Assembly: GCA_035533295.1 (NCBI GenBank)
Contig: DATLUA010000002.1
Coordinates: forward strand, 11,323-75,322
Length of the DNA: 64,000 nucleotides
From: Elusimicrobiota bacterium
Lineage (GTDB): Bacteria > Elusimicrobiota > Elusimicrobia > UBA1565 > UBA9628
Direction of reading: 5' to 3'
Shown: positions 1 through 56,320 of the stretch, in pieces
How the letters are laid out: every line of letters begins with the position of its first letter
Numbering within the stretch: position 1 is the first letter of the stretch
Position numbers and translations under genes: made by a program
Notes under the pieces: model-generated
Seen by the model: only the letters and a program-made list of their open reading frames with translations
Told to the model about the DNA's origin: nothing
The model's database searches: none

Positions 1-1793
1 AACGCCCGCGAGGCGGAGAGGATCACGAGCAGGCCGGAGGCGGCGCCCGCGATCTCCCAGGCGGGGTTGGAGCCGGCGAACAAGGCGGCATAAGCGCCCG
101 AGGCGGCGAAAAGAAGCGGCCAGAAGACTCCGGCCAGGATTTGGGGCAGCCGGCGGCGCTCAAAGACAGCGAGCCAGGCCAGGGCCAAGAAAAAGGAATA
201 GGCCGCCCCCTCCAGCAGGACCCGCGGATCGACGCGCCAAGCCAGCGCCCCCGCGAGCGAACGGAGCAAAAGCAAAAACGGTGCCGCCAGGGTCGCGGCC
301 GCTGCCCACCCCTGGCTTTCCGCCTCCAGGACAATCAAGGAGAAGCCCAAGACCGCCAGGGCCGCCAGCATCGGCAGGCAGAGCAGGACGCGAATCGCGT
401 CCTCGAAGACGCCGAAAATTTTGGCTTTGAGGCCCGTCATCACGACCGCCGCAGGTAAGGCCATCGCTCCCATCATCACCCGCATCGCGTCCCGACCAAG
501 CCGGGCGCGGATGTCGAGCTCATTTTGAATTTCGCGCGCCCGGGCGTCCCTGGGAGAAAGACCCCGGAGCTCGGACTTCAAGGCATCGTCGCTCAGCCGG
601 GCCAATGTCGGATTTTTTTCCTTCTTGAGCGTCCCGATTTCCTTGGCGGCGGAGGCGAACGAAACGATCTGGGATTTCATGCTTTGGGCACGCATTTTTT
701 GGCGCAGCGTCCGGAACGGAATGGCCAGGAGCAACCCCAAGAAAATGAAGCAGAGCCTGGCTGAGCGCGGCGCCACGGCGTTTCGTTCCAGGAATTTTCG
801 TATCCGATACCAGCCGCCGCTTCTCAGCGGACCCACCGGCCTCGTCTCGCGCCGGGCCTTGAGATCGGCCAGCACCTCCGCCGCCCCGGCGTAGCGGCGC
901 GCCGCGTCGGCCAAGACGCATTGCCCCACGATCGCGGATAAGTCCTCATCCACATTGCCGCCCGTAGCCAGCGACGCCTTCTCCAACGGCCGGCGACCGA
1001 CGATCTCCCGGTAGAGCGCGAGCTTTTCGTCCAGCGTCTTGAGGCTCTCCAAGAACCTCCGGTCTTCCTCGCCGCCGTGCGGCGCCCGACCACTCAAAAC
1101 CGCCCACATCGCCGCCCCCAGGCCGTAAACGTCCCAGCGCACGTCCGGCCGGACCGGCTCGCCTTCCTTGGCGACCGCCGCCTGCTCCGGCGCCATGTAG
1201 AACAAGGTCCCCAGCGCCCCGGCGCTGTCGGTGACGATGCGCGATTGCCCGAAATCCGCCACCCGGATATGACCGCCCTCGTCCAAAAGGATGTTCGCGG
1301 GTTTCAAGTCGCAGTGGATCAGGCCCTTGGAGTGGACGTAGGCCAGGGCTTGGGCAACTTCCTCCATCCACCGTGCGGCCTCACCGACCGGGGCGGGGTT
1401 GGCCGGATCGACGAAGCGTTCGAGCGAACCCGCCGCCAGGAAATCCATCGCGTAGTACGCGGGGTCACCCGTGAGATCGGCGTCCAAAAGCGAGACGATA
1501 TGAGGATGCTTGTCGAGCGTGACGAGCCGCTCGACTTCCCGCTGGAGGAAGAGCCAGTTGACGCCTTTTCTCTGGGTGAAGACCTTGATCGCCACCTGCT
1601 TGCGCGTGCGGATCTGCCACGCCTTCCAGACCTCGGCGAAAGCGCCGCGGCCCAGGGCTTGAGTCAGGATGTAGCCCGCGATCTTGGGCGCGGCCGCGTG
1701 CTGCTCGGCCTCCTTGGGGAGCGAGAGCTCCTTGGAGGCCGCGATCTCCGCTTCGAGCTGGGCTTGGGTTTTCTCCGGCTCGGACTCGCTCAT
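1..1793 (-). CDS. Membrane-anchored eukaryotic-type Ser/Thr protein kinase (non-RD, HCD variant); N-terminal kinase domain plus at least 6 predicted C-terminal TM helices; C-terminus runs off the left window edge
   Basis: Absent from the ORF track because no stop lies in the window. Reverse-strand translation from the ATG at 1793 gives a Gly-loop LGRGAFAEVW, VAIK, AYVHSKGLIHCDLKPANIL, DFG and YMAPEQ, then hydrophobic segments (LLCLPMLAALAVLGF, FFLALAWLAVF and others), with no stop down to position 1. Confidence 0.8.
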   Translation of the reverse strand, partial: MSESEPEKTQAQLEAEIAASKELSLPKEAEQHAAAPKIAGYILTQALGRGAFAEVWKAWQIRTRKQVAIKVFTQRKGVNWLFLQREVERLVTLDKHPHIVSLLDADLTGDPAYYAMDFLAAGSLERFVDPANPAPVGEAARWMEEVAQALAYVHSKGLIHCDLKPANILLDEGGHIRVADFGQSRIVTDSAGALGTLFYMAPEQAAVAKEGEPVRPDVRWDVYGLGAAMWAVLSGRAPHGGEEDRRFLESLKTLDEKLALYREIVGRRPLEKASLATGGNVDEDLSAIVGQCVLADAARRYAGAAEVLADLKARRETRPVGPLRSGGWYRIRKFLERNAVAPRSARLCFIFLGLLLAIPFRTLRQKMRAQSMKSQIVSFASAAKEIGTLKKEKNPTLARLSDDALKSELRGLSPRDARAREIQNELDIRARLGRDAMRVMMGAMALPAAVVMTGLKAKIFGVFEDAIRVLLCLPMLAALAVLGFSLIVLEAESQGWAAAATLAAPFLLLLRSLAGALAWRVDPRVLLEGAAYSFFLALAWLAVFERRRLPQILAGVFWPLLFAASGAYAALFAGSNPAWEIAGAASGLLVILSASRA

Positions 1794-2323
1794 GGATCGA
1801 GCGCCGCAGGGACTAATGCCCTCCCCGGTGACCGCATCAACTGGAAAGAACTCGCGAACCGGCCGAAATCCGAAAAATCATTCGATGGGGAGATCATCTC
1901 GATCGCGTAAAGCGTCCGGCCGATCAGAAAATTCAGATTTCTTGAATACCCGCCTTTAATTTGCACGACGAAATCAACGCCCTGGTAGCCTTCGAAATTC
2001 ACATAATTGGACGTGAGCACCGTCCCCTGTGTCGCCCTCGCGGCGCCGTTGACGCTTCCATTCAGATTGACCCTGGGATTTGAGAAATCCGCTCCGGCGG
2101 GATATGTCGCGCACATCGCCGAGTATGCTCGATGATTCACCGTGACGGAATAAGTCGTCGTCACCAGCGGGCCGAACCTCGTCGGGACCGCGAATCTTTT
2201 TTCGGCGGGATAGCCCGGGAATTGGCTTTGGGCCTTGGCGTCCCCTCTTTCCGCGAATGGGAAAATCAGCTGGAAAGCCTTGGCGAAATCACCGGCGTTA
2301 TAAGCGGCAAAGGCCTCATTCAT
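1790..2323 (-). CDS. Hypothetical protein with N-terminal Sel1-like repeat (AFAAYNAGDFAKAF..AERGDAKAQ) and a beta-rich C-terminal part; its stop overlaps the kinase start (ATGA)
   Basis: 177-aa ORF in the track. Sel1-like motif by eye. The TGA at 1790-1792 overlaps the kinase ATG at 1791-1793. Confidence 0.5.
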   Translation of the reverse strand: MNEAFAAYNAGDFAKAFQLIFPFAERGDAKAQSQFPGYPAEKRFAVPTRFGPLVTTTYSVTVNHRAYSAMCATYPAGADFSNPRVNLNGSVNGAARATQGTVLTSNYVNFEGYQGVDFVVQIKGGYSRNLNFLIGRTLYAIEMISPSNDFSDFGRFASSFQLMRSPGRALVPAALDP

Positions 2324-2337
2324 CGTGGTTCACCTTG

Positions 2338-2649
2338 TCATTTAAAATAATCATTCCCACTCCACGCGGCGTACAGCCGGTCCGATTCGAGATCGCCGCG
2401 CCTTTCGACCATTTCGGTCCAATCCGGCGGAAGCCCGGAAGCACCCAGTCTTGCTCCCTGAATCACTCCCACCACGCAACAGATCGAATCGGAATCGCCT
2501 CCAGTATTGACCGAAGATATCAGACGACCGCGGAGATCGTCCGGGTGGCGCATCACCGAGCAGAGCGCGCAGGCCGGGACTTCGCAGGCCGTCCAGACTA
2601 ACATATTTATCGAGACGCGCCGACATATCGCGAATCTTGTCGCAAAATT
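2338..2649 (-). pseudogene. ADP-ribosylglycohydrolase family, C-terminal fragment only (..GGDSDSICCVVGVIQGA..GLPPDW..)
   Basis: The GGDSD(S/T)..A..GA.YG..G.P..W C-terminal signature of DraG-like hydrolases. An in-frame stop lies 16 codons upstream of the first Met and smpB abuts, so the N-terminal catalytic half (about 200 aa) is missing. Confidence 0.45.
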
Positions 2650-2678
2650 CTACAGTCTAGCGGCGGGGCCAGCCAGCG

Positions 2679-3167
2679 TCAGCCCTTGTAGCTTCCTTTA
2701 AAGCTCTTCTCCGCTTCGCGCGCCGCGGCTTTTTTCTTGAGAGCCTCGCGACGGTCGGGCCCCTTCTTGCCGCGCGCCAAGCCCACCGCCACCTTGGCCC
2801 AGCCGCGTCGGAAGTACACTTCCAGCGGCACCAGCGTCAGTCCCTTGATCTGCAGGCTGCCGGTGATTTTGTCGATTTCCCGGCGGCGCAGCAAGAGCCG
2901 CCGCTTGCGCCTGGGATCGGCGTCCGTGTTTTGAGTCGCGTAGCGGTAGGGAGGAATGTAGAAATTAAAGAGATAGATATCGCCGCCTTCAGCCCGGCCG
3001 AAAGAGCCATCCAAGGACGCCTGCCCGCCGCGCAAAGCCTTGACCTCGGGGCCCTCCAAGCTGATGCCCGCCTCGTAGGTCTCCAGGATTTCGTAGAAAT
3101 GCCGCGCCTTGCGGTAGGTCGAGACCGAAATCTTGTCCGACTCTTTCTCGTCTTTGGAGGGCTTCAT
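2679..3167 (-). CDS. smpB: SsrA-binding protein SmpB
   Basis: MKPSKDEK..STYRKARHFYEILETYEAGISLEGPEVKALR.. is a canonical SmpB. The start was moved to the internal Met at 3167, giving 162 aa. Confidence 0.9.
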   Translation of the reverse strand: MKPSKDEKESDKISVSTYRKARHFYEILETYEAGISLEGPEVKALRGGQASLDGSFGRAEGGDIYLFNFYIPPYRYATQNTDADPRRKRRLLLRRREIDKITGSLQIKGLTLVPLEVYFRRGWAKVAVGLARGKKGPDRREALKKKAAAREAEKSFKGSYKG

Positions 3168-3265
3168 CGTAGCGCCACCAGGGCGCGCAGGCATTATAGC
3201 AAGTCGGGCAAAGCCGGGCCCTTTTTGATAGAATAACACGCCTTCGCGGAAATTCTCGCTTTAAC

Positions 3266-3349
3266 GGGCAGGTGGCGGAATTGGCAGACGCGCACGGCTC
3301 AGGACCGTGTGGCCGCAAGGCCTTGGGGGTTCAAGTCCCCCCTTGCCCA
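3266..3349 (+). tRNA. tRNA-Leu (anticodon CAG), type II long variable arm, CCA not encoded
   Basis: Manual fold: acceptor GGGCAGG/CTTGCCC, anticodon stem CACGG/CCGTG with loop CTCAGGA, variable arm TGGCCGCAAGGCC, T-arm GGGGG-TTCAAGT-CCCCC. Confidence 0.85.
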
Positions 3350-3353
3350 TTTT

Positions 3354-3788
3354 ATGCCGGAAACTCCGCAGTTCTTCAGTTGCCGCATCTACGGCGTGCT
3401 GCGCCGCGGCGGCAGGGTGCTTCTGACCCGCAGCCGCTTCATCGACCGCGAATTCGTCAATTTCCCCGGCGGCGGCATCGAGTTGGGCGAGCCTCCTTTA
3501 AGCGCCTTGAAGCGCGAGTATAAAGAGGAGACCGGGCTTCTGATCCGCCCCCTTAATATCCTCTACGCCAGCGAGGGGCTGCACGTCTCGACCCATCGCC
3601 CCATGCAGATCGTGAGCCTCTATTGGCTGGTGGAGGAAACGGGCGGGACGCTGCGCTCGGGCGGCAACGACGACGACGTCATCGACTTGTTCTGGGCCGA
3701 CGCGGACGCCATACCCACCGACGAGATGTTCCCTTCCGACAAGGAATTCGCCCTACGGCTGAAAAGCCTAACCGCGGCCGGGCTTTAA
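3354..3788 (+). CDS. NUDIX hydrolase
   Basis: Nudix box GGGIELGEPPLSALKREYKEETGL. The start was moved to the ATG at 3354, 5 nt after the tRNA, because the track ORF start overlaps the tRNA. Confidence 0.7.
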   Translation: MPETPQFFSCRIYGVLRRGGRVLLTRSRFIDREFVNFPGGGIELGEPPLSALKREYKEETGLLIRPLNILYASEGLHVSTHRPMQIVSLYWLVEETGGTLRSGGNDDDVIDLFWADADAIPTDEMFPSDKEFALRLKSLTAAGL

Positions 3789-4724
3789 TATCCGGCGCGC
3801 CACGGCCACCGGATCGGAGCGGTGTTCGAGCATGCGCTTCAAGTCATCCCGCGTGACGCGATCCAGCGCCCGCTGGTAAAGCCGGCGGGAAATATACAGG
3901 GACAGCTCTTCTTGATGCTGGACCGAAAGCCGCGCGCGGCCTTCGCCCGAGGACTTCAAATATTCCCAGTGGGACTCCAGGATTTTTCCCAGTTCGGGCA
4001 CGCCCTCTCCGGTCATGGCGGACGCGGCGACGACTGGCGGATCCCACGGCATTTTCTCGCGGCCGCGGCCCAAGGACAGCGCCGATCTCAAATCGCTGAC
4101 CGCCTTGTCCTTGCCGCCCAGGTCGGCCTTATTGACCACGAAAACGTCGCCGATTTCCATGGCCCCGGCCTTCATGGCCTGGATTTCGTCGCCCAGCTGC
4201 GGCGTGGTGACGTAGGCCACGGTGTCGGCGACCTTGGCGATGGTCACCTCGTCCTGGCCCGTGCCCACGGTCTCGACGATGATTTTGGAGAAGCTCGCCG
4301 CCTCCAAGGCATGGATGGCGCCGTAAATAGTCTGCGAGACGCCGCCCACCATGCCGCGCGTGCCCAGGGAGCGCATGAACACGCCCGGGTCCGAGACGTG
4401 CTCCTGAACGCGCAGCCGGTCGCCCAAGAACGCGCCGCCGGTCAGGGGGCTCGTGGGGTCCACGGCCAGGACGCCGACCTTGAGCCCTTGGCCGCGAAAA
4501 TGGGAAATGAGCCGTCCGCAGAGAGTCGATTTGCCGGCGCCCGGCGGGCCGCTCAAGCCTATTTTATGCGCCCGGCCCGATTCAGGGAAAAAGCGTTGCA
4601 GCAAAACGTCGGATTCCGGAGCCTCGTTGATAAGAAGGCTCAAGGCCCGGGCCAAGCTCCGGCGGTTTCCCGCGCGCACCGCGGCCGCGAGCGCCTCGGC
4701 GGAGGATTTACTTCCCGCGCGCAC
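3768..4724 (-). CDS. meaB: Methylmalonyl-CoA mutase-associated GTPase MeaB/ArgK (G3E family)
   Basis: [14 protein letters not shown]-loop, VVNKADL and overall MeaB similarity. The start was set at GTG 4724, 13 nt after the upstream B12-subunit stop; the first ATG would overlap the upstream gene by 118 nt. Confidence 0.8.
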
Positions 4725-5124
4725 GGGGCAAGTTCTCTTGCAGATAGGCGACGATGATGGAAAGCGGCGTTCCCGGGCCGAAAACCTGGTGAACGCCTTT
4801 TTTCTTGAGCGCCGGCACGTCCTCATCCGGTATGATGCCGCCGCCGAAAAGAAGCACGCCCTTCAGGCCTTTTTTCTTGAGCAGCCCGGCCACTTGCGGA
4901 AAAAGCGTCATGTGCGCGCCGGAGAGGAGCGAAAGCCCCACGGCGTCCACGTCCTCCTGCAGCGCGGCCTCCGCGATCATTTCGGGCGTCTGGCGGATGC
5001 CCGTGTAAATCACCTCGAAGCCCGCGTCGCGCAGCGCCCGCACGATGACCTTGGCGCCGCGGTCGTGGCCGTCCAACCCGGGCTTGGCGATCAAGACCCG
5101 ATAGGTTTTTTTCCCCGTCACCAT
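4708..5124 (-). CDS. Methylmalonyl-CoA mutase B12-binding subunit (stand-alone C-terminal cobalamin-binding domain)
   Basis: [37 protein letters not shown] is a classic DxHxxG B12-binding domain. Confidence 0.85.
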
Positions 5125-6203
5125 ACGCCCTCCTCGTTCGCCGCGATTTCGACAAAAGCCTTGGCCACGCGCGGATCGAAGCGCGCGCCCGAGCCCTGCT
5201 TGGCCAGCGCTACGGCGCGGTCGCGCACGCTTTCTCCGTCCGTGCCGCCGCTCATGCGCATCTCTTCGACCGCCTCGACCAGCCCCAGGATGCGGCCGCC
5301 CAGCGAAATGTCCTCGCCTTTCAGGCCCGCCGGGAATCCCCCGCCGTCGAAGCGTTCATGATGTTCCCGGATGGCGGGCAGGGCCCCCGAGAGAATCTTG
5401 ATGCCTTCGAGCATGCGCACCGAAAGCAGCGGATGGCTCTCCTCCGAAACGTTGGTCATCCCCATTTCGCCCAAAAGCCTGATGTTGCGGAAAGCCAAGT
5501 AGCCCACGTCGTGGAGCAGGCCCGCGTAGTAGAGCATCCGGTAGTCGTGCTCCCCGATGTCCAAGGCGCGGCCGATAGCGCAGCACAGCCGGGCCGCGCG
5601 GCCGGGGTGCCCCTGCATCCCGGGTTTGGAGGTCTCGATGAGCGACACCAGCAGCTCTAGGATATGGGAAAAGAAGTTCTTTTGATCCGAAATCATGCGG
5701 GTATTGGTGATGGCCACCGAGGCCAAGCCCGCCAGGCTTTCCAGGAGCTTCGCGTCGGTCTCGGAGTATTTTCCCCGGCGCTTGTTCAAGACCTCGATGA
5801 CGCCGACCAAGTCCCCCTTGAAGAACATAGGCACGCACAAGACCGAGCGCGTCTCGAAGCCCGAGGCCTTGTCGAAGCGGCCCGTGAAGCGCGCGTCGTT
5901 CTTCACGTCGTTGACCATTTCGATTTTTCGGTTCTGGGCCACCCAGCCGGCGATACCCTGGCCCAGGGGCAGCGTCATGGTCCGAATCGCGCGGGCCTTG
6001 TCTCCCGAGGCCACCCGGAAAAAGAGGTTTTTCCCGTCGTCGGTCAGGAGCATGATGGCGCTGGCCTCGGAGTCGAGGAGCTTTTCCGCCTCCGAGCCGA
6101 TTTGCCGCAGCAAGGAATCCAAATCCATGCTGGAATTGAAGCTCCCGGCGATGGAGAAAAGCTCCAGCGCCGTCCGCGTGTCGAGCGAAAGCTCCGCGGC
6201 CAT
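5118..6203 (-). CDS. GAF domain + HD-GYP-type phosphohydrolase (motif variant [11 protein letters not shown], i.e. GFP instead of GYP)
   Basis: N-terminal GAF-like region (..[21 protein letters not shown]..), then H..HD..HHE.FDG.GFP. Confidence 0.75.
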
Positions 6204-6204
6204 G

Positions 6205-7987
6205 CTATTCGACCCCCCCGAGGACTTCCCGCACCGTGGTCAGGCCCATGAGCACCTTGTGGAGGCCGTCCTGCACGATGGGCCGCATGCCTTCCTTGAG
6301 CGCCTGGTGGCGGATGGGGTCGGCCGCGATTTCCTTAAGGCAGAGCGCGCGCAGAGAGTCGGACATCGCCAAAAGCTCGTGCAGGCCGATGCGGCCGCGG
6401 AAGGCCAGCTTCTTGCAGGCCTCGCAGCCTTCGGCCGAGGGCCCGTAAATCTTCGCGTCGGATTTGATCTCCACGCCGTTTTCCGCGAAGACTTGCTTCT
6501 CCTCGGGCGTCGGATCGTGCGGAACCTTGCACTTCTCGCAGAGCTTGCGCGAGAGCCTCTGCGCCATGACGGCCTTCAAGGTGGTCGCCACCATGTAGGC
6601 GGGAATTCCCATCTCCACCAGGCGCGAGATGGCCGAGGGCGCGTCATTGGTGTGGATGGTGGAGAAAACCAAGTGGCCGGTCATGGCCGCCTCCATGGAG
6701 ATGTGCGCGGTCTCGCGGTCGCGGATTTCGCCGACCATGATGACGTCGGGGTCCAGGCGCAAAAACGAGCGCAGCGCGGTCGCGAAGTCGAAGAACTTGT
6801 CCTCGCCGAGCTTCAAGTCCGGATTGACGGGAACCTGGATGATGCCGTCCAAGTTGTATTCGACCGGATTCTCCGCGGTCAGAATTTTGATGTCCGGCCG
6901 GTTGATGTGGTTCAAGGCGGCGTAGAGCGTCGTGGATTTACCGGAGCCCGTCGGGCCGCAGAGCAGGATGAGGCCGAAGTTCTTCTTGCCGCCGATGCCC
7001 TTCAAGAGGCTCAAGAACTTTTCCTGAGTGTCCGGCAAAAAACCCATTTTGCCGATGTCCACCTGCGCGGCCTTGCGGTCCAATATACGCATGACGCAGG
7101 ACTCGCCGTAGACCGCGGGGACGATTTCGACGCGGAACTCGATGGGGTTTCCCTGCGCCAGAATCTGGATGCGCCCCGACTGCGGGATGCGGCGCTCGGT
7201 GATGTTCATCGAGTTGGTCATGATCTTAATCTTGGCCGCGATGGCGTTGCGGTAGCCCCAGGGAACGTTGAAGGGGCCCGGCACCAACTGGCCGTCGACC
7301 CGGTAGCGGACCAGAACCCGGGAGTTGCGCCCCGTGGGATCCTCTAAGGGCTCGATGTGGATGTCGGAGGCCTTCATGGACAGCGCGGTCAGGATGATGG
7401 CGTTGACGAGCTTTTCCACCTCGGGAGCGGAAGCGTCGACTTCCGTGATGTCGGTCTTAACCTGATCCGACAAGACATCGACGCCGGTCGACTGCCCCAA
7501 ATCGTCCTTTTTGGCGACTTCCTCGATGAGCCGGCTCACGGTCGCCGCGCCGCTGCGCCCGTAGACGTTGTCCAAGGCGTCGCTGATGTCCTGGGGCACG
7601 GCCAGCACGCCCTGGACCTGCAGGCCCGTGCGCAGCTCGATGTCCTCGCAGACGAAAAAATCCTTAGGATCGGCCATGGCCACGTAGAGGAGGTTTTCCT
7701 CCTTGGCGAACGGAACGGCCCCGTGGCGCCGGGCCGCGGATTCGGGGATGATCCGCGCGGCCTCAAAATCCATCTCCACCTTGGTCAGGTCCACGGCCTG
7801 GACCTTCCATTCCTCGGACAGCGCCGCCAGCATGTCGTGCTTGGACGCGGCGCCCGCGTCGACGATGGCCTGGATGAAAGGCTTTTTGTCCTTCCTGGCG
7901 GCCTCTTCGGCCTCGCGAATTTTCTCCGCGGGAACCAAGCCCTTGTCCAAGAGAACCTCGGCCGCGGTCCTGCGCCGCGCAAGCCCT

Positions 7988-7998
<11 letters not shown>
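6205..7998 (-). CDS. GspE/PilB-family secretion/pilus-assembly ATPase with N-terminal T2SE_Nter domain
   Basis: LLCGPTGSGKSTTLYAAL Walker A, VGEIRD, HLVFSTIHTNDA and a C-terminal Cys cluster CEKC..CEAC. Confidence 0.85.
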
Positions 7999-9603
<1,605 letters not shown>

Positions 9604-9607
<4 letters not shown>

Positions 9608-9945
9608 TGGCGGAACTCCAATTTTTCCCCTTTGGCGACGGCGCCGGACGAGGCGCCGGCGGCCAGTTCCAGCACGCTGTGGGCGCGAAAAACCCAGGGC
9701 GAGAGGCGCCACGGCTTTAAGTTTTCCAGCACTCGCACGACGCCAAAGTTAGAATCGAGAAACACCGCGTCGATGGCGAATTTCATGAAAAACGTGTGGA
9801 TCATGGGGCAGGGCACAATCCAGAGGCCCTCGGAACGGCCCAAGGAGTTCCGGCCCAGAAGGCCGCGCGAGCGCGTCCGCGGCGTGTCCGCCTGCGAGAC
9901 TTGCGACGCCACCACGGCGTTCCGGCTCACGTTGAACGCGATCAC
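9604..9945 (-). CDS. DUF192 (COG1430) family protein
   Basis: ..RGLLGR..EGL.IVPCPMIHTFFMKFAIDAVFLD..L.PWR..VLELAAG... A probable GTG start at 9945 overlaps the ksgA stop (GTGA); the longer track ORF would overlap ksgA by 120 nt. Confidence 0.6.
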
Positions 9946-10766
9946 GATTTTTCGATGTCCTCCGGCGCGGCTTTGCTTTTTAAAATAGCAAATTTCTCCG
10001 CGAGGAGGGCGTAAGCTTCCGGCGGGATGTCCTGCGCGCGGCACGATGGCGAAAGGCCGCATTCGGATAGCACGCGCGCCGCCATGTTCTTGGGAATTGC
10101 GAAGGCCTGGGCGATGGGCGTCTGCGCCATTTTTCGCCGCTGGCTAAAGGCCGCCTTGGCCATGCGGAAAAACAGCGCCTGCCGCGCGGCATCCAGCATC
10201 GGCTTGGGCCGCCTGACCAGGCGCACCACCGAGGACTGCACCTGGGGCGGCGGCGAAAAAGAGCGCGGCCCCACGTCGAAAAGAATCTCGGCTTGGGCGT
10301 AAAGCCACGCCGACAGAGTCAAAACCCCGTAATCGGCCGTCCCGGGCTTGGCCGCGATGCGCAGCGCGACCTCCTTCTGGAACATCAAAACCGCCTCGTC
10401 CCAAGGCTCCCAGGGCAGGATTTTCTGCAAAATGGGCGACGCGACCGAATAGGGCAGATTGGCCGCGATTCGAAACGGCCCCGCCGAGGCCGGGCCCAGC
10501 TCGGCGAGGTTGAGCTTCAGGAAATCCGCGCGGACGAGGCGGAAATCGGCCCGCCCGGAAAACTCCTCTTCAAGCGCCGCGGCCAGGCGCTCGTCCATTT
10601 CCACCGCCGTGAGCTCGGCGCCGGCGGCCAGGAAAGCGCGCGTAAGCATTCCCCGGCCGGGACCTATTTCCAAAACGCGCCGGCCTTTCCCGATTTGAGC
10701 GCAGGCTGCCATGCGGTCGCGGACCCGCTCGTCCGAAAGGAAATGCTGCCCGAGCCTGGCCGGCAT
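9942..10766 (-). CDS. rsmA: 16S rRNA (adenine1518/1519-N6)-dimethyltransferase RsmA/KsgA
   Basis: GQHFL.D..V..RM......VLEIGPG.G.LT...NLPY motifs. The start was set at the Met at 10766, 7 nt after the murC stop. Confidence 0.85.
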   Translation of the reverse strand: MPARLGQHFLSDERVRDRMAACAQIGKGRRVLEIGPGRGMLTRAFLAAGAELTAVEMDERLAAALEEEFSGRADFRLVRADFLKLNLAELGPASAGPFRIAANLPYSVASPILQKILPWEPWDEAVLMFQKEVALRIAAKPGTADYGVLTLSAWLYAQAEILFDVGPRSFSPPPQVQSSVVRLVRRPKPMLDAARQALFFRMAKAAFSQRRKMAQTPIAQAFAIPKNMAARVLSECGLSPSCRAQDIPPEAYALLAEKFAILKSKAAPEDIEKS

Positions 10767-10773
10767 CAGCGGC

Positions 10774-12195
10774 CTAGGCCGGACCCGGATGGGCCGCGGC
10801 CAGCCGGCGCAGGAGCTCCTCGCCAACGGCGCGCACGTCTCCCGCGCCCAAGGTCAGCACCGTATCGCCGCTTTTGATGCTTTCCAAAACCGGCGCGACG
10901 CCCGGGAAGGCCGCGCAGTCAATCTTGCTGCGGACCAAGGAATCGAGAATCAGCTTCGAGCTGACTCCCGGCAGGGGTTTTTCGCCGGCCGGATAGATGT
11001 CCGTCACGTAAACGAAATCGGCGCCTTTAAACGCCGGGCCGAAATGCCCGGCCAGAAGCTTGGTGCGCGAAAAGCGGTGCGGCTGGAAAATCACCACGAG
11101 CCTTTCCCGGCGGGCGCGGCGGGATTTAGCGCCATTCCGGAGAGCGGCCAGCGTCGCCGCGATTTCGGTCGGATGGTGGCCGTAGTCGTCTACGAACTCG
11201 GCGTCCCCGACCGAGCCGAGGCGATCCAAGCGCCGGCCCACGCCGGAAAATTCCCCCAGCCCCCGGGCCAAATCCCGCGGCTCGAACCCCAAATAAGCGC
11301 CGGCGGCCATGGCCGCTAAGGCATTCAGGACATTATGCCGGCCCGGAACCCTGAGGGACACTTCGGCGGCTTTGCGGCCGCCATGAAGCGCCTCGAATCT
11401 TGAACCGCCTCGAAACAACCGCACATCGCGCGCGCGCCAGCCGGCCTTGCGATCAAAGCCGTAAGTCGAGACCGGCCGCTCGACGCGCGGCACGATAGAA
11501 GCCGCGCCGGCGTCGTCTTGGCAAATCACGGCGCAGCCGTAGAAGGGCAGGCGGTGCAGATAGTCCAGGAACGCCCGCTTCAACTGGTCCATCGATTTGT
11601 GGAAATCGAGATGATCGTCGTCGATGTTGGTCACCACGGCGGCCAGGGGCGATAGGTGCACGAATGAGCCGTCCGATTCGTCCGCCTCCACCACCATATA
11701 GTCTCCCATTCCCATGCCGGCCGCGGGACGGACGTTCTTGAGCCGCCCGCCGACGATCAGGGTCGGGTCGGCTCCGGCCGCCGCCAGCGCCAACGCGGCC
11801 ATGGAGGTGGCGGTGGTCTTGCCGTGGCTTCCCGCGACGGCCAGGGTCTTCTTGAAGCGGCAGAGCTCGGCCAGCATCTGGGCTCGCGGGATGACGGGAA
11901 TGCCCTCCCGGCGCGCGCGGACCAGCTCGGGGTTGTCCGCCGGCACCGCGGTGCTCGCGACCACGACCTGCGCGCCGCGGACGTGCGCGGCCCTATGGCC
12001 CAGCCAAACCTTGATTCCCTCCGCGGCCAGCCGCTTAAAGGCCTCGCCGCGCTTGGCGTCCGAGCCCGACACCTCGTAGCCCAGGCTGTGCAGGACCTCG
12101 GCGATGCCGCTCATGCCCGAGCCGCCGATGCCCACGAAGTGCACGCGCCGGATAAACGGCCGCATCATGTCCTCTAGGCGGGCCTTATCCGCCAT
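10774..12195 (-). CDS. murC: UDP-N-acetylmuramate--L-alanine ligase MurC
   Basis: VHFVGIGGSGMSGIAEVL..GSHGKTTATSM..DDYGHHPTEI. The start was set at the internal Met MADKARLEDMMRPF. Confidence 0.9.
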   Translation of the reverse strand: MADKARLEDMMRPFIRRVHFVGIGGSGMSGIAEVLHSLGYEVSGSDAKRGEAFKRLAAEGIKVWLGHRAAHVRGAQVVVASTAVPADNPELVRARREGIPVIPRAQMLAELCRFKKTLAVAGSHGKTTATSMAALALAAAGADPTLIVGGRLKNVRPAAGMGMGDYMVVEADESDGSFVHLSPLAAVVTNIDDDHLDFHKSMDQLKRAFLDYLHRLPFYGCAVICQDDAGAASIVPRVERPVSTYGFDRKAGWRARDVRLFRGGSRFEALHGGRKAAEVSLRVPGRHNVLNALAAMAAGAYLGFEPRDLARGLGEFSGVGRRLDRLGSVGDAEFVDDYGHHPTEIAATLAALRNGAKSRRARRERLVVIFQPHRFSRTKLLAGHFGPAFKGADFVYVTDIYPAGEKPLPGVSSKLILDSLVRSKIDCAAFPGVAPVLESIKSGDTVLTLGAGDVRAVGEELLRRLAAAHPGPA

Positions 12196-14575
12196 GGCCG
12201 CCTCCACGAGGCGAAGCCTGCACGGCGGCGGGACGCAGGAGCCAATTGAGGCCTTGGCGCGCCTCGCGGTTTTTAGGATCCAACCGAAGAACCCGGCGGT
12301 AGGTTTCCTCGGCGCCTTTTTCATCCCCGGTGATGACATAAGCCACGCCCAAGCCCAAGAGAGCCGATTCGTTCTGGGAATCCAAGGAAACCGCGCGCTT
12401 GAAAGCGTCGAGCGCCCGGCGGCCCTGGCCCAAATCCGCGCGGGCCAGCCCTTCGGCCACCCACCAGTCCGTCTGATCCGGATGGTTGGGCGGTTCGCCT
12501 ATCTGCGGCAGCGTCTCCTGCACCAAGGCCATCCAGCCCACGCCCACAATCCAGAGCCCCATGTCGTTGCCGACCTGCCGCGGCTCGTAGAGCACGTTGG
12601 AGTTGGAAGGATTTTCGCCCGAGCCAGCGCCTCCGCCGCCGGACTGCGCATCGGCGGACCGCGAACCGTCGGAAAGTTCCTGGAGCTTGTTGAAGGTCAG
12701 GTTCATGCCCAGGTGCACGTCGCTTCCATCGGGCGCCTCGGCCACGGTCTTCTGCAAATCCTGCAAAATTCCCGCTATTTGGCGCCGGCGCTCCTCGGGG
12801 CCAGCCGCGCGGATTTGGTAGCTGCGGTTGACGGCCTGGATTCCCTGGGAGGGCCCGTTGACGGCCATCTGCAGCGCGCGCTTCAACTGAGAGGAGCCGA
12901 CTTCCTGGGAAGACGGCTCGACGAGCTGCGGCTTGGGCATGAACACCGCCTGGACCTGCATGATGGCGTCTTGATCCAGGGGAATGCGCTCCAGGTTGCG
13001 CGCGAACACGCTCAAGGGATCATCCGCCGAAAGCTTGGGCATCGCGGCGCCGCCCGCTGACGGAGCCGGGGGCTCGGCGGCCCCGGATGCCGCGCCGGAA
13101 GGCGCGTTGGCGCCCCCGCTCGCGGCGGATTTCCCGGAATAGGCGACGGAAAGCTGCAGGCCCGCGCCGCCTTCCCGCGGCGTCAGGTGGAACGCGCCCG
13201 CGAAAATCTTGCGCGCCTGGGCGAAGCGGCCCTCGAAGAGCAGCACGCGCCCCAAGCGCAGGCGGGCCACCGAATCCCGGTTCTTTAGCTCCAAGGCCTT
13301 CTCAAAGCTCGCGAGAGCCGACTTCAAATCCCCGTCGCTTTCCTGGACCGCGCCCATCTCCAGCCATGCGTCCTCGAACTGCGGATTTAAATCCAGCGAC
13401 TTGCGGAACGCCGCCTCCGCGTCCTGGCTGCGGCCCAGAAGATAATAGAGCGCGCCCAGTTGAAAACGGTAGAGAGGCTCAGTGGGCGCGAGCGCCACCG
13501 CGCGGCGCAAATGTTCGAGCGCGTCGGAAATTTTCCCCAGGCTTTCCTCCAAGGACGCCAAATCCATGAACGAATCCGGGCGGTTCGGGTCGAGCTTGAT
13601 CGCCTTGCGGAACGCGTCGTAGGCTTCCTGATCGCGATCCTCGTAGGCCAGGGAAATGCCCCGAAGGATGTGGAGCTGGGCGCTGTTGGGGTTTAGCTTG
13701 AGGCTGATTTGGTATTCCTTGAGCGATTCATCCACCTCGCCCAGCCAATAATACGCCGCGCCCAGCATCATGTGCGCGTCCGCGTTCTTGGGATCCGCGG
13801 CCACCGCCCGGGAGAACCTCATCGCCGCCGTCGCGTAATGATGGTTTGAAAAATCGTCATAGCCCTGGGAGATATCCTGATTGGACTGCGCCGCCATCAT
13901 CTGATCCCAAACAGTCTGAGGCGGCTGCTCGGTCGGAAGCGCCCGCGACGGCGGCGCGCCCAAGCACAGCAGCACGCCGCCCAAGGCCAGGGCTTGCTTG
14001 ACGCGCGGCAAAATCGCCGCGAGCGCGCGGGCCCGGTGGCTGATGCGGTTTTTTTCCGCCAGGCCCATCTCGGCCAGCGTTTTTTTCTCGTCCGGCGCGT
14101 AGAACACGGGGTCGTAGCCGAAGCCTTCGATGCCACGCGGCTCAATCGTGATTTCACCCTCGAGACGGCCTTCCTCGCAGATGACCGCGCCGTCCGGCCC
14201 GGCCAAGGCCATGACGGTGCGAAAAACCGCGCGCCGAGGCGCCGGAACGCCGCGCAGCTCGGAGAGAAGCTTCTTGATGTTGGCCGCGAAATCGCAACCC
14301 GGCCCCGCGTAGCGCGCCGAATAAACGCCGGGCCGCCCGCCCAAGGCCGCGACCTCCAAGCCCGTGTCGTCGGCCAGGGCCCAGTCCCCGCAAAAACGCG
14401 CGGCCGTTTGCGCCTTCTTGCGCGCGTTGCCTTCGATGGTGGGCTGGTCCTCGTCTATTTCGGGAAAACCGGGGCAATCCTTGGGCAGGGCCAAAGCGAC
14501 GCCCAGCCCCCGCAGGGCTTCCGAAATCTCGCGGACCTTATGGGAATTTCCCGTGGCCAGAAAAAGGCGCCTCAT
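12185..14575 (-). CDS. Fusion protein: RdgB/Ham1 non-canonical purine NTP pyrophosphatase (N-terminal 200 aa) + signal-peptide-like hydrophobic segment + about 560-aa TPR-repeat region
   Basis: N-term LFLATGNSHKVREI..GFGYDPVF..NRISHRARAL is a complete RdgB. There is no stop before ALALGGVLLCLGAPPSRALP, which is followed by many TPR motifs (A..YY.LG..DEA...Y..ALKLNP). Confidence 0.7.
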   Translation of the reverse strand: MRRLFLATGNSHKVREISEALRGLGVALALPKDCPGFPEIDEDQPTIEGNARKKAQTAARFCGDWALADDTGLEVAALGGRPGVYSARYAGPGCDFAANIKKLLSELRGVPAPRRAVFRTVMALAGPDGAVICEEGRLEGEITIEPRGIEGFGYDPVFYAPDEKKTLAEMGLAEKNRISHRARALAAILPRVKQALALGGVLLCLGAPPSRALPTEQPPQTVWDQMMAAQSNQDISQGYDDFSNHHYATAAMRFSRAVAADPKNADAHMMLGAAYYWLGEVDESLKEYQISLKLNPNSAQLHILRGISLAYEDRDQEAYDAFRKAIKLDPNRPDSFMDLASLEESLGKISDALEHLRRAVALAPTEPLYRFQLGALYYLLGRSQDAEAAFRKSLDLNPQFEDAWLEMGAVQESDGDLKSALASFEKALELKNRDSVARLRLGRVLLFEGRFAQARKIFAGAFHLTPREGGAGLQLSVAYSGKSAASGGANAPSGAASGAAEPPAPSAGGAAMPKLSADDPLSVFARNLERIPLDQDAIMQVQAVFMPKPQLVEPSSQEVGSSQLKRALQMAVNGPSQGIQAVNRSYQIRAAGPEERRRQIAGILQDLQKTVAEAPDGSDVHLGMNLTFNKLQELSDGSRSADAQSGGGGAGSGENPSNSNVLYEPRQVGNDMGLWIVGVGWMALVQETLPQIGEPPNHPDQTDWWVAEGLARADLGQGRRALDAFKRAVSLDSQNESALLGLGVAYVITGDEKGAEETYRRVLRLDPKNREARQGLNWLLRPAAVQASPRGGGHGG

Positions 14576-14619: not shown

Positions 14620-14928
14620 ATGTCGATGATGACGGCTTTGCGCTGGCGCTGTTGCCTCGCCATTCTGGCTCTGGGGTTGGCCGGGTGCGCGACGACGGGC
14701 GCCCAGGATATCAACCTCTCCGACGCGGCGCTCCAAGCCCGGGTCGAGGAGCGTCTGGCCGCGCGCAAGGACCTGGACCTGCACTTGGTGGACATCGACG
14801 TCGTCTCGCAGGTGGTGACTCTCTCCGGACTCGTCAATTCATGGCAGACCAAACAGGAAGCCGGACGCGTCGCGGCCCGCACGCCGGGCGTCCAGGAAGT
14901 CCTCAACAATCTCCTGATCCAAGAATAG
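14620..14928 (+). CDS. BON (OsmY-like) domain lipoprotein
   Basis: Signal peptide plus lipobox LAGC, then a BON domain (DAALQARVEERLAARKDLDL..VDIDVVSQVVTLSGLVNSWQTKQEAGRVAARTPGVQEV). Confidence 0.7.
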   Translation: MSMMTALRWRCCLAILALGLAGCATTGAQDINLSDAALQARVEERLAARKDLDLHLVDIDVVSQVVTLSGLVNSWQTKQEAGRVAARTPGVQEVLNNLLIQE

Positions 14929-21286: not shown

Positions 21287-22363
21287 CTATGCCTTGCCGC
21301 GTTTTTTTCGCGGACCGGGACGTTTCTTGCGCTCGGTCTCCAGCGCTTTGGCCGATGTCCGGAGATCCTCAAGATACCGGGCCGCGGCAGAGGCCTCCGC
21401 TTCCAGCCGCCGGCGCTCGGCGAAGGCGTCGTATTGCTCGTTGGCCCAGGAAAGCACCTCTTCATGGGTCACTTTGCCGGAATCGGGAAGCACCGGCAGC
21501 TCCGTCTGCTGGAGAAACTGGTCCAGGAACGCGGTCCAGTCCCGCATCTGGATGTCCTGGCGGCGCTGGGCCCGGAACTCGGCCTGATCCAGGAACATGA
21601 CCACGATCCGGTTGAGCGTGTCGATTTCCTTCTCCGTCAGATAGTTCTTCGCCGTCGCCACGTCGCGCTTGAGCACCCGGCTGCCGCTCCAAGATGTCAG
21701 GCCCATGTTGGCTTTGCCGGCGTCGGCTCTCCTGCGGACGATCTCGGCAGCGGTCATGCCGGCCGCCGCGTAGTGCATCTTGTTCTGCATCGCGGCGAAG
21801 AAGGCCTGCGTCTCCTCCTGCCCCTCGACGTAGTCCATGGCCATGGCGAATATCTCCCGGATGCGCTGATAAACGCGGGCTTCGCTGGCCCGTATCTCGC
21901 GGATGCGGACCAGCAGTTCGTCAAAATAGTCGGCCAGCCTATCGTGGCCCTTGAGACGCTCGTCATCCAAGGTGAAGCCCTTGATGAGGTACTCCCGCAG
22001 CCGTTCGGTCGCCCATTGCCGGAACTGCACCCCGCGCGGCGAGCGGACCCGATAGCCGACGGCTAGGATCATGTCCAGGTTATAGAGCTTGATTTGGCGC
22101 CGGACGGCGCGCCCGCCTTCCTGGCGAACTTGTAAGTGTTCCTTACAAGTTGCCGCCTCCGACAGCTCGCCGTCCTTGTAGATTTCTCCGATGTGGATGG
22201 TGACGTTCTGCGGCGTCGTTTGGAACAGCTCCGCCATGAGCGCCTGGGACAGCCAAACCGTGCCGCCCTCCAGCCTGACCTGGATATGGCTCTGCCCATC
22301 CTCGGCCTGGTAGATGATGATTTCCGACTTGGCCGGTTTCTCCGGCGAGTTTTCCGTCATCAT
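21287..22363 (-). CDS. RhuM-family protein (virulence-associated / mobile-element-associated)
   Basis: IIIYQAEDGQSHIQVRLEGGTVWLSQALMAELFQTT..YNLDMILAVGYRVRSPRGVQFRQWATERLREYLIKGF matches the RhuM family closely. The start was set at MMTEN, with ATGA overlap to the upstream stop. Confidence 0.8.
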   Translation of the reverse strand: MMTENSPEKPAKSEIIIYQAEDGQSHIQVRLEGGTVWLSQALMAELFQTTPQNVTIHIGEIYKDGELSEAATCKEHLQVRQEGGRAVRRQIKLYNLDMILAVGYRVRSPRGVQFRQWATERLREYLIKGFTLDDERLKGHDRLADYFDELLVRIREIRASEARVYQRIREIFAMAMDYVEGQEETQAFFAAMQNKMHYAAAGMTAAEIVRRRADAGKANMGLTSWSGSRVLKRDVATAKNYLTEKEIDTLNRIVVMFLDQAEFRAQRRQDIQMRDWTAFLDQFLQQTELPVLPDSGKVTHEEVLSWANEQYDAFAERRRLEAEASAAARYLEDLRTSAKALETERKKRPGPRKKRGKA

Positions 22364-22980
22364 TTTTTGCGGCCAAGGGCCTTGTTGGCCGCGGCCAGAT
22401 CGAAGGCCTTCGGGTCGTAATCCCCGCCGACCCAATCGACCATCTCGTCGTGCTGCTCGTGCTTGGGATCGCGCAGCGCGGCGAGCAAATCCTCGCAGCC
22501 GCCGATGCCGCCGCAGTCCTCCGGGGGGCAAGCCCCTGCGCCGGCCAAACATTCGGGCCCTTTGAATGCGCCCGTGGCCGGCGTGATGGACTCCACCTTG
22601 ATTTCATGGCCCCAGCTGTCGCCCATGTCGTACTCGTAGAAAAACTTCGCGCCAGTTTTGCGCGCAATGTCCCAAAGCACGAACTTCCGCTCGTCCTCGA
22701 CGTCGTCCCAGTCCGGCGTCCGAGGGGCGATGCGCGTCTTGCCGACATGGAACATGTGCAGATGGCAATCGCTCCAGCCCATGGCGTACTGGATGACCCG
22801 ATGGAGGCTGCCCAGGCTCGCGTCTCCCGGCACGAGGACCCGCCGCCAGACCGGCGGCTCCAGGCCGACGAGAGTGATCTTGAGCTGGTAGACCTTGGCC
22901 GCGGCCTGGTCCAGCTCTTTTTTGACCTCATTGGGGACCCAGCCCCTATTCTTAAGTTGGTCAAGAGACTTTGTATTCAT
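22360..22980 (-). CDS. Plasmid pRiA4b ORF-3-like family protein
   Basis: VYQLKITLVGLEPPVWRRVLVPGDASLGSLHRVIQYAMGWSDCHLHMF..YDMGDSWGHEIKVE signature. Confidence 0.7.
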   Translation of the reverse strand: MNTKSLDQLKNRGWVPNEVKKELDQAAAKVYQLKITLVGLEPPVWRRVLVPGDASLGSLHRVIQYAMGWSDCHLHMFHVGKTRIAPRTPDWDDVEDERKFVLWDIARKTGAKFFYEYDMGDSWGHEIKVESITPATGAFKGPECLAGAGACPPEDCGGIGGCEDLLAALRDPKHEQHDEMVDWVGGDYDPKAFDLAAANKALGRKK

Positions 22981-22996
22981 AGGCTGGATTCTCCAC

Positions 22997-23083
22997 CCAA
23001 AAACCGAAACGGCGCGTTTTATCGCACCATTTCGGCTTTTGGAACGCCGGGTTCAACAATTAAGAGCTGGCGGGGCCGAGGGA
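22997..23083. repeat. Direct repeat copy A (about 85% identical to 25425..25515): partial tRNA-Asp 3' end (about 17 nt) plus degenerate terminator hairpin; att-like island boundary
   Basis: 42-nt exact core ccgaaacggcgcgttttatcgcaccatttcggcttttggaac shared with copy B; a tggcggggYcgaSgg tail matches the tRNA-Asp 3' end. Confidence 0.75.
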
Positions 23084-23348
23084 ATCGATTTACCGACGGC
23101 CTAAATCCCGCCCCTGTTCCAGCGCCAGAAAAAGCATATATTTTCCAAGCTTTCGCGCTCAACTGGTCCGTGACGTGGGGCTGCATCATGAACGGGGAGC
23201 GCGTGGTGTTGGAGACTGCCCCTTCGCCGGACCGAAAAACCATGGACTTCGACATCCCGGAGTTCAAATGCCGTCGTGCTATCGAAAGAACGGCGGGAGC
23301 AATACCAATAAGTCTCTGCCCTGACGGGGCGGCGCTCGGAGAATTTCT

Positions 23349-23690
23349 CTAAGCGGCAGCCAGCCGTTGAATGAGCGGCAAGGCCTGTTTGGCTTTGCTT
23401 TCGGCGATGCAGAACGGGACGAACTTCAGACCGAGAGCTTCCGCCATCTTCGCCACGCGATCCATGGACGCGGCCCGTAAGCCGCCGCCTTTAAGATCGC
23501 GGGATATCGCGCTCTTTTGAGTTCCCATGGCCTTCGCGAGGTCGGAGTAACTCCAATGCTTTTTTTCCAAGGCGTTGAGCATCTGGACTTCCAGCTTGAA
23601 GAGCTCGTAGCTCTCCTCATGACGCTTGCGGTAGGCGGGGTCCTCCATTTTCCGCGCCAAGAGCCCCTTGGCTTTCCCTTTAGTTTTCAT
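23349..23690 (-). CDS. XRE-type HTH antitoxin (HigA-like)
   Basis: ..WSYSDLAKAMGTQKSAISRDLKGGG..ASMDRVAKMAEALGLKF HTH. Lies downstream of the toxin gene and overlaps it by 11 nt. Confidence 0.6.
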   Translation of the reverse strand: MKTKGKAKGLLARKMEDPAYRKRHEESYELFKLEVQMLNALEKKHWSYSDLAKAMGTQKSAISRDLKGGGLRAASMDRVAKMAEALGLKFVPFCIAESKAKQALPLIQRLAAA

Positions 23691-24102: not shown

Positions 24103-24270
24103 TTCCGCTACTCGTAAGTTAACATATAAGTGAACGACTGTCAAGAGCCAACCGTTGCCCCAGAAAATCAACCTTGTCCACGACGTCCAGGGGCGGCGAA
24201 AGGCTAGGAAGGCCGCCGGTCGCGTTTTTGATGGGCGTACTTGGGATGAGAGGCCCCAGTTGGATTCGGC

Positions 24271-27144: not shown

Positions 27145-27194
27145 CCTCGGGGTAAAATATATGCAATAAATCACGCTCGGCCAAGAGCGCCACC

Positions 27195-56285: not shown

Positions 56286-56320
56286 GTAACCGGTATCCTT
56301 GTCTAGTCCAAAATATAACG

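Follow-up and report, generated by a model that had tools for sequence, protein, structure and literature searches.

Genes for a PilB-like ATPase and a GAF/HD-GYP protein lie between the subunit genes of a split methylmalonyl-CoA mutase in Elusimicrobia

Introduction

Split methylmalonyl-CoA mutases, composed of a large catalytic subunit and a B12-binding subunit of about 135 aa, occur in many archaea and some bacteria, and separation of the two subunit genes has precedent, for example in Metallosphaera sedula (Msed_0638 and Msed_2055). To our knowledge, the mutase systems described so far require only the G-protein chaperone MeaB and an adenosyltransferase. In this study, we examine a split mutase encoded in a window of 64,000 nucleotides from an Elusimicrobiota bacterium (contig DATLUA010000002.1, positions 11,323 to 75,322), the window being the whole stretch of DNA that was analysed. 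Its large TIGR00641-type subunit (mcmA), small TIGR00640-type subunit (mcmB) and adjacent MeaB equivalog (meaB) resemble those of known systems. Unlike in split mutases elsewhere, exactly two unrelated genes, for a PilB-like secretion-superfamily ATPase and a GAF/HD-GYP protein, lie between the subunit genes and are joined to them by overlapping codons. We find that this order is inherited as a unit within one Elusimicrobia clade, and that, of the two, the mutase genes were most probably the newcomers at the locus.

The nearest solved split relative of the mutase is HcmAB, a 2-hydroxyisobutyryl-CoA mutase (HCM; PDB 4R3U), in which three active-site positions carry Ile, Gln and Asp where mcmA of the window has Tyr, Arg and Ala. 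Mutase substrates are marked by such residues, which include Phe and Gln in isobutyryl-CoA mutase (ICM) and Ile and Asp in HCM.

Type IV filaments are thought to be important in Elusimicrobiota, and the closest solved relatives of the ATPase are motors of such filaments, namely the PilB proteins of Myxococcus xanthus (3JC8) and Geobacter metallireducens (5TSG) and Thermus PilF. They have the same MshEN/GSPII N-terminal domain, N2 domain, ATPase core and tetracysteine motif, and align over their full length at about 40% identity (E about 1e-115). Unlike PilB, the window ATPase falls under the equivalog cut-offs and has no adjoining pilC, pilM-Q or pilin gene. The N-terminal domain also belongs to the fold family of Vibrio cholerae MshE and of GSPII-B and GSPII-C of Thermus PilF (Pfam MshEN; phmmer matches to 5htl and the PilF domains). 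Binding of cyclic di-GMP (c-di-GMP) by this domain is associated with the 24-residue motif (R/K/L)LGxx(L/V/I)(L/V/I)xxG(L/V/I)(L/V/I)xxxxLxxxLxxQ, present in two copies 5 residues apart (PMC11731258). MshE-type receptors carry both copies, whereas the window ATPase has neither.

The GAF/HD-GYP protein shares its two-domain architecture and its length with PmGH of Persephonella marina (4MCW), in which the substitutions D183A, K225A and D308A abolish c-di-GMP hydrolysis (PMC4159591). Tlr0485 of Thermosynechococcus, a GAF-controlled HD-GYP protein activated by cAMP (bioRxiv 10.1101/2021.11.05.467447), is a precedent for control of HD-GYP activity by a GAF domain. A further parallel is the PilB-PilZ-FimX system of Xanthomonas citri, where, according to the account given in PMC12943098 of the original work (PMC8389850), the PilB N-terminal domain does not bind c-di-GMP and control is exerted through contact with proteins that have degenerate second-messenger domains. 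The partners there are PilZ and a GGDEF-EAL protein and here a GAF/HD-GYP protein; the likeness is an analogy of mechanism, drawn on our side from sequence alone. A literature search joining methylmalonyl-CoA mutase, MeaB and type IV pilus returned no papers, and thus no report of either a secretion-type ATPase or an HD-GYP protein between mutase subunits; among the papers listed for Elusimicrobia with methylmalonyl-CoA or pili, none concerned the present locus by title or abstract.

Results

An interleaved six-gene core is inherited as a unit

The core lies on the minus strand. A DUF192 gene (COG1430; 9604-9945; a small all-beta protein of 113 aa as called) precedes mcmA, which encodes the large catalytic subunit of a split methylmalonyl-CoA-type mutase (7988-9607; PF01642, 5.2e-205; TIGR00641, 681 bits against a cut-off of 304). 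There follow the genes for the ATPase with its MshEN/GSPII N-terminal domain (6205-7998; T2SSE, 1.2e-108; MshEN, 5.7e-19) and for the GAF/HD-GYP protein (5118-6203; GAF_2, 5.7e-22; HD_5, 3.2e-21), then mcmB for the small B12-binding subunit (4708-5124; PF02310, 1e-24; TIGR00640, 174 bits, cut-off 57) and meaB for the mutase chaperone (3768-4724; TIGR00750, 309 bits, cut-off 241). Gene starts were taken from L001, an identical contig in ENA on which genes had been called independently, and domains were assigned with Pfam and NCBIfam; all three sources agree with an earlier note on this DNA that the mutase subunit genes lie apart with the ATPase and GAF/HD-GYP genes between them. The mcmA stop falls within codons 3-4 of the ATPase gene, an 11-nt overlap (7988-7998, minus strand) that reads ...CATCATGCCGGCTAAAGG..., and the GAF/HD-GYP stop and mcmB start share the 7 nt ATGGTGA (5118-5124, minus strand), preceded by a GGAGG-like ribosome-binding site.

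Orthologous loci were collected by tblastn and phmmer with the window proteins, and gene neighbourhoods were filled in by looking up identical proteins. Ten further contigs (L082, L162-L166, L010, L011 in part, and contigs of P0037 and P0051), which derive from different samples and assemblers, carry the core DUF192-mcmA-ATPase-GAF/HD-mcmB-meaB. Identity of the ATPase to that of the window, taken by tblastn at five loci, ranges from 96% down to 64% (L082 96%, L162 82%, L010 64%), and identities of 71% (L163), 70% and 66% were measured for three query proteins. The 11-nt mcmA/ATPase overlap is present in every gene-called mutase-flanked (type-A) contig and at all eight loci that were read as DNA; the ATGGTGA overlap, behind its GGAGG-like site, was likewise found at 8/8 type-A loci read as DNA.

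The six-gene block is inherited vertically as a unit, because pairwise identities of the core genes co-vary across eight loci (r = 0.59-0.95 against the ATPase), because their means are similar (mcmB 83%, mcmA 73%, ATPase 71%, GAF/HD 65%, meaB 65% and DUF192 61%) and because GC3 of the ATPase (0.88) and GAF/HD (0.85) genes is close to that of their neighbours. We also considered a foreign composition of the ATPase pair and rejected it, since both GC and GC3 match the neighbouring genes. These data exclude misassembly and recent horizontal transfer; an order unique to this assembly, which the earlier note had held out as a reason to doubt the locus, is contradicted by the same core in 10 independent contigs, and the conservation in related genomes for which the note had called is borne out.

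The core is intact in the window lineage even where its surroundings are rearranged. The upstream segment of elongation factor P (EF-P), HAD phosphatase and S8 peptidase genes is gone there, so that ksgA abuts DUF192, and the segment epimerase (Epi)-carboxyltransferase (CT)-malate dehydrogenase (Mdh)-PanK-unk243-SmpB is inverted relative to L163-L166. In most relatives the block runs on into the genes for a glyoxalase-family epimerase, a carboxyltransferase and malate dehydrogenase, that is, the succinate/propionate pathway set.

The breakpoint of the inversion in the window is occupied by a tRNA-Leu(CAG) gene and a NUDIX gene (3266-3788, plus strand).

The ATPase module probably preceded the mutase genes at the locus

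Comparison of all fetched loci by tblastn and phmmer with the window proteins gave a common Elusimicrobia backbone, murC-ksgA-[variable]-EF-P-HAD-S8 peptidase-DUF192-[mcmA]-ATPase-[GAF/HD]-[mcmB-meaB-Epi-CT-Mdh]-PanK-unk243-SmpB(-), in which the bracketed items differ between lineages. Nine Elusimicrobiales-type loci (L005-L008 and L083-L087) read S8-DUF192-ATPase-unk243-SmpB, and three (L167, L168 and L004) have DUF192-ATPase-GAF/HD without the mutase genes. Almost all Elusimicrobia loci with sequence upstream of the ATPase have DUF192 directly before it, or directly before mcmA where mcmA precedes the ATPase; it was not detected there in L003 and L088, and just ahead of the ATPase in L088 lie genes for a PilZ protein and for another PilB-like ATPase. 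At L012 a 315-aa secretin gene occupies the slot of mcmA, between DUF192 and the ATPase, with GAF/HD after the ATPase; a Tad-like cluster (a TadZ/ParA-TadA fusion, two T2SSF, sCache and TPR) precedes this set, and cluster and set together span 508-13059. Non-Elusimicrobia ATPases of about 40% identity also have GAF/HD-GYP genes after them, amid housekeeping genes (metagenome-assembled genome L035 of Nitrospirota; metagenome contigs L091 and L111).

In a neighbour-joining tree of the ATPase, a single clade unites every mutase-flanked locus, with L002 and L004 placed inside this clade in 100/100 bootstraps and L167/L168 outside it in 63/100. The L004 locus has lost mcmA, mcmB, meaB, epimerase and Mdh, and still has carboxyltransferase and PanK after GAF/HD, so its mutase genes appear to have been lost secondarily; with L002, the nesting points to two such losses inside the mutase-flanked clade. 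An uninterrupted DUF192-mcmA-mcmB-meaB order with the ATPase pair elsewhere was not seen among 30 orthologous loci and contigs.

Because the module sits at the locus in mutase-less lineages, because the ATPase-GAF/HD pair is also present in other phyla, and because the mutase-flanked order marks a single derived clade, the mutase genes most likely settled around the ATPase pair rather than the pair among them. The most parsimonious reading, with moderate support, has DUF192-ATPase-GAF/HD ancestral at the locus and a single recruitment of methylmalonyl genes to its flanks. The description of the locus in the earlier note, as a mutase operon interrupted by an insertion, is thereby turned round, for the module holds the same backbone slot where mutase genes are missing.

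Two candidate relics of mcmA in loci without the mutase were set aside. In L168 a 41-aa open reading frame (ORF) extends across the start of the ATPase gene but has no visible similarity to mcmA C-termini, and the 15 nt GGAGAATACCATGGC that L002 has in common with type-A loci comprise a ribosome-binding site and start codon and are ambiguous.

Other variants of the locus were also noted. A DUF3307 membrane protein gene takes the place of DUF192 before ATPase-GAF/HD-GYP in L091 (8611-12262) and L111 (91-3894), a second recurrent three-gene arrangement, and a nucleotidyltransferase/HepT pair lies between the ATPase and GAF/HD genes in L035. A zeta-toxin/ParD-like toxin-antitoxin pair is inserted in the conserved stretch from S8 peptidase to DUF192 in L168 (3918-4876, minus strand).

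The ATPase is PilB-like and lacks the c-di-GMP motifs of its N-terminal domain

Among NCBIfam models the ATPase scored best with PilB (TIGR02538, 533 bits, cut-off 676) and next with GspE (TIGR02533, 477 bits, cut-off 630), missing both equivalog cut-offs. Its N-terminal MshEN/GSPII domain, absent from the description in the earlier note, also matches an NfrB C-terminal model. The Walker A (GPTGSGKST), Walker B (DPDVIMVGEIRD) and His box (TGHLVFSTIHTN) motifs are invariant in 17 orthologues, as are the zinc-site cysteines C487, C490, C525 and C528. Identity is 50-96% within Elusimicrobia and, among the matches listed, at most 43% to the rest of the GTDB species set, and the Elusimicrobia proteins form their own clade in the tree.

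Aligned to M. xanthus PilB, motif I of the window ATPase is T11-A12-A13...A34 and motif II is P40-F41-I42...E63. The hydrophobic scaffold of the motifs is kept, and the nucleotide-contacting R/L/G/Q residues are lost throughout the Elusimicrobia clade, in which Gly does not occur at motif position 3; in the same alignment, PilBs of the Geobacter type retain both copies of RLG...Q. Canonical binding of c-di-GMP by the ATPase therefore appears unlikely.

The statement that the ATPase is orphaned from pilus genes holds within the 64-kb window, where a family scan of ORFs of at least 200 aa detected no T2SSF/PilC, PilM/N/O, PilM-Q, secretin, PilT or pilin family. A prepilin motif of the G-F-T-L-I-E type is absent from every frame of the window. 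Filament genes lie nearer to the ATPase in some relatives: L164 and the P0037 contig have pilin and prepilin peptidase genes at a distance of 8-10 kb, L168 has a pilin gene only, and L012 has the adjacent secretin and Tad-like cluster.

The GAF/HD-GYP family has lost residues that PmGH needs for c-di-GMP hydrolysis

The protein of the window matches PmGH (4mcw) over its full length (7.8e-34) and retains the six core metal ligands H189, H221, D222, H250, H276 and H277 together with the HHE...DGxG(F/Y)P motif. Of 121 orthologues (identity at least 59%), 79 keep the full set of these ligands; the remaining 42 have replacements at one or more of the sites, and 40 of these at three or four (pattern Y-H-K-L-H-K). 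Other sites are altered in nearly the whole family: K225 is Y/F in 121/121, D183 is K/R in 117, E185 is non-acidic in 120, R314 is G in 120, D308 is E in all 121 and D305 is E in 80. Unlike in PmGH, where D183 and K225 are essential, both are replaced family-wide; the residues of the window protein that correspond to D183, K225, D308, Y285, R314 and K317 are K, Y, E, F, G and D. Mean column identity is 0.855 for the GAF domain and 0.763 for the HD-GYP domain, and both are still constrained in the 'dead' subgroup. The pattern is that of a predicted sensor or adaptor, not of a dedicated c-di-GMP hydrolase. The proposal in the earlier note that the locus takes part in c-di-GMP turnover thus finds neither the published motif in the MshEN domain nor, in the HD-GYP family, the residues essential in PmGH, and no GGDEF gene was detected in the window among ORFs of at least 200 aa.

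Near the locus, a Ser/Thr protein kinase gene and a gene for a 564-aa class III nucleotide cyclase (Guanylate_cyc) lie between SmpB and unk243 (window 1-1793, minus strand, and L001 16206-19705), an insertion that close relatives L082 and L162 lack at that spot. That a cyclic nucleotide from this cyclase might be the GAF ligand is pure speculation.

The mutase has a methylmalonyl-type active site

The specificity residues of mcmA, namely the Tyr in RQYAGF, an Arg of the Arg207 type and the Ala in STAFD, align with those of MutB (1req) and human MUT (2xij). HcmA (4r3u) reads RQIAGF, MAQKEYIYP and STDFD at these sites. Identification as HcmA or ICM was considered, HcmA being the best PDB match, and rejected on these differences. 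The active site is thus predicted to be of the methylmalonyl type (Tyr89/Arg207, Propionibacterium shermanii numbering), a residue pattern that does not separate ethylmalonyl-CoA mutase. The DxHxxG motif of mcmB appears as DGHDRG in the translation. By these features mcmA, mcmB and meaB are assigned to an ordinary split B12-dependent methylmalonyl-CoA mutase with MeaB.

DUF192 is 58-99% identical across more than 100 Elusimicrobia clusters. Its predicted model is all-beta (pLDDT 85) and has structural matches only to uncharacterised DUF192 structures; the gene order at L012 hints that it may be a type IV filament accessory protein.

The core belongs to a nine-gene run

Upstream of DUF192 the minus-strand run includes ksgA/rsmA for the 16S rRNA dimethyltransferase (9942-10766; TIGR00755, 233 bits, cut-off 171) and, by the gene call, murC for UDP-N-acetylmuramate--L-alanine ligase (10774-12195; TIGR01082, 487 bits, cut-off 335). 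The run opens with a Ham1/RdgB-TPR fusion gene (12185-14575, minus strand, as called; Ham1p_like, 3.8e-61, and many TPR families), which joins a non-canonical NTP pyrophosphatase to a TPR protein of about 600 aa. It is bounded upstream by a divergent BON-domain gene (14626-14928, plus strand), and its downstream end meets a convergent NUDIX hydrolase gene (3354-3788, plus strand, gene call) next to the tRNA-Leu(CAG) gene (3266-3349, plus strand; ARAGORN and Rfam). The nine genes extend from 14575 to 3768 with junctions, in gene order, of -11, +7, -4, -4, -11, +1, -7 and -17 nt, so that all eight are overlaps or gaps of at most 7 nt. The eight packed minus-strand genes of the earlier note are all present, tight and with the domains given, and to them is added the Ham1/TPR gene, which overlaps murC by 11 nt; the upstream limit of 12339 proposed in the note is that of the longest murC ORF, and the called start is 12195.

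Geometry of this kind suggests that the run is most likely transcribed as one unit, and its genes would be co-expressed because overlapping stop and start codons leave no room for terminators. Internal terminator-like sites (17, against 15.2 expected from shuffled sequence) and promoter-like sites (1, against 1.7 expected) were not in excess. Cobalamin and c-di-GMP riboswitches were not found in the window at Rfam gathering thresholds, three tRNAs being the sole matches.

The middle of the Ham1/RdgB-TPR fusion is of low complexity and rich in Ala, Gly and Ser, and the same fusion is present in L162.

Discussion

The account towards which we lean, by a modest margin over doubt, is that an old module of DUF192, PilB-like hexameric ATPase and GAF/HD lies between split-mutase genes for reasons of history, and that the ATPase serves a filament encoded elsewhere. 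In the ancestor of one Elusimicrobia clade, genes of the methylmalonyl-CoA pathway would have come to flank the ATPase pair, mcmA being placed upstream and mcmB, meaB and the genes for the epimerase, carboxyltransferase and malate dehydrogenase downstream. A possible route is insertion of a mutase operon beside the pair, followed by local duplication and loss or by transposition. The stop/start overlaps at mcmA/ATPase and GAF-HD/mcmB may then have locked the order; with codons overlapping at both junctions, the mutase subunits would be made only by translating through the ATPase pair, and the four proteins would be co-expressed. The mutase would serve the succinate/propionate pathway. The ATPase, predicted to be catalytically competent, would act as the extension-type motor of a type IV filament, and the GAF/HD-GYP protein, its GAF domain sensing a small intracellular ligand, would most likely regulate the ATPase through protein contact and not through c-di-GMP hydrolysis. 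Nothing in these data requires propionate metabolism and filament activity to be functionally linked.

Several observations weigh against this account. The history is read from a neighbour-joining tree of one protein with a key node at 63%, and an ancestral mutase-flanked order followed by several losses is only slightly less parsimonious. Placement of mutase genes on both sides of the pair needs two events or an unobserved intermediate. Co-transcription and translational coupling have gene geometry as their sole source, and a PilC-type platform, secretin or pilin could not be tied to the ATPase in the genome of the window. All six metal ligands are kept in the HD-GYP domain of the window protein, which may retain some hydrolysis. 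A genuine functional link under selection could also explain why the core persists through rearrangements of its flanks and why the ATPase (71% mean identity) is as conserved as mcmA (73%).

These last two points favour the strongest alternative, a selected functional coupling in which the ATPase and its sensor are kept in the operon so that pilus or second-messenger state follows methylmalonyl-CoA flux, or the reverse. We regard it as possible, if rather doubtful. The invariance of both overlaps speaks for it, and so does the extension of the block in most relatives to epimerase, carboxyltransferase and malate dehydrogenase, which places the pair inside a coherent pathway operon. Against it, the ATPase keeps its backbone position in lineages that have no mutase genes at all, whether or not GAF/HD-GYP and DUF192 accompany it, and also after the loss in L004. 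The conserved surroundings include murC, ksgA, EF-P, HAD phosphatase, S8 peptidase, PanK and SmpB, and adjacency is weak evidence of shared function because the conserved order takes in such clearly unrelated housekeeping genes. The c-di-GMP signatures are degenerate in both proteins, and the window scans gave neither a GGDEF gene nor a riboswitch. The suggestion in the earlier note that propionate metabolism and pilus activity are co-regulated had adjacency as its only basis, in what proves to be a region of functionally mixed conserved genes.

A more specific idea, which we think unlikely though worth stating, is that DUF192, the PilB-like ATPase and the GAF-(pseudo)HD-GYP protein form an undescribed regulatory module, common throughout Elusimicrobia, in which a GAF sensor with a mostly non-catalytic HD-GYP domain directly gates a type IV filament motor, the GAF ligand or the expression of the module reporting methylmalonyl-CoA flux in the mutase-flanked clade. 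If so, pilus extension, be it for adhesion, uptake or motility, would be hard-wired to energy metabolism via translational coupling. Should metabolism and piliation be coupled in this or another way, the locus makes the question directly testable.

Hardly credible is a recent horizontal transfer in which a mobile ATPase/HD-GYP cassette landed in an mcmA-mcmB-meaB operon that had until then been intact. The interleaved order does resemble an insertion, and GC skew is slightly different over 6000-7500, but GC and GC3 match the neighbours and across eight loci the pair and the mutase genes have diverged in step. Moreover, orthologues occupy the same slot, between S8 peptidase-DUF192 and unk243-SmpB, without the mutase, and no integrase, transposase or repeats flank the pair. 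Still less credible is the view that the ATPase and GAF/HD-GYP proteins are mutase accessory factors for cofactor delivery, repair or assembly, unrelated to filaments. The pair is apparently co-translated between the subunits and lies near the MeaB chaperone; yet it is retained where the mutase is missing, the ATPase has the full PilB architecture with PilB/PilF as its closest solved relatives, a secretin and a Tad-like cluster precede it in L012, and by general knowledge mutase systems need no helpers beyond those named at the outset. An assembly or binning chimera, conceivable since the source is a metagenome-assembled genome, has a negligible chance, because 10 further contigs, obtained from different samples with different assemblers, have the same order.

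All four protein families are well known, and no new kind of machine is proposed. What is new is a two-subunit enzyme whose genes have stayed separated by two unrelated genes, regulatory or motor in kind, with which they are apparently co-translated, and this through a long stretch of evolution (ATPase identities down to 64%), which makes the locus a natural case for weighing function against frozen history in operon gene order. Also new is a distinct, very well conserved PilB-like clade, widespread in Elusimicrobia, detached from pilus genes and usually paired with a GAF/HD-GYP protein of altered catalytic residues and conserved sensor. By analogy, this pairing would point to a filament motor controlled by contact, much as with FimX, in a phylum that is still uncultivated. 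As a caution, 'MshEN' and 'HD-GYP' matches should not be annotated as c-di-GMP signalling without a check of their motifs.

Further observations

Elsewhere in the window, an 1805-aa protein (50994-56411, minus strand) combines Peptidase_M50 with a STAND/AAA_16-NACHT-like NTPase, ClpB-like AAA_2 and a D2-small domain, and its ORF is overlapped by that of a 1493-aa protein without a Pfam match (46526-51007, minus strand). This giant ORF pair (46526-56411) could be a defence or proteolysis system. Genes for a RhuM-family protein (21287-22552, minus strand) and an HNH endonuclease (24271-24951, minus strand) lie near a tRNA-Asp gene (25498-25575), and the region 21287-24951 looks like a small mobile or defence islet. 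The lipase maturation factor family is best known from eukaryotes; a homologue with LMF1 and LMF1_C domains is encoded at 25621-27174 (minus strand), where it adjoins a GT21/GT2 glycosyltransferase gene.

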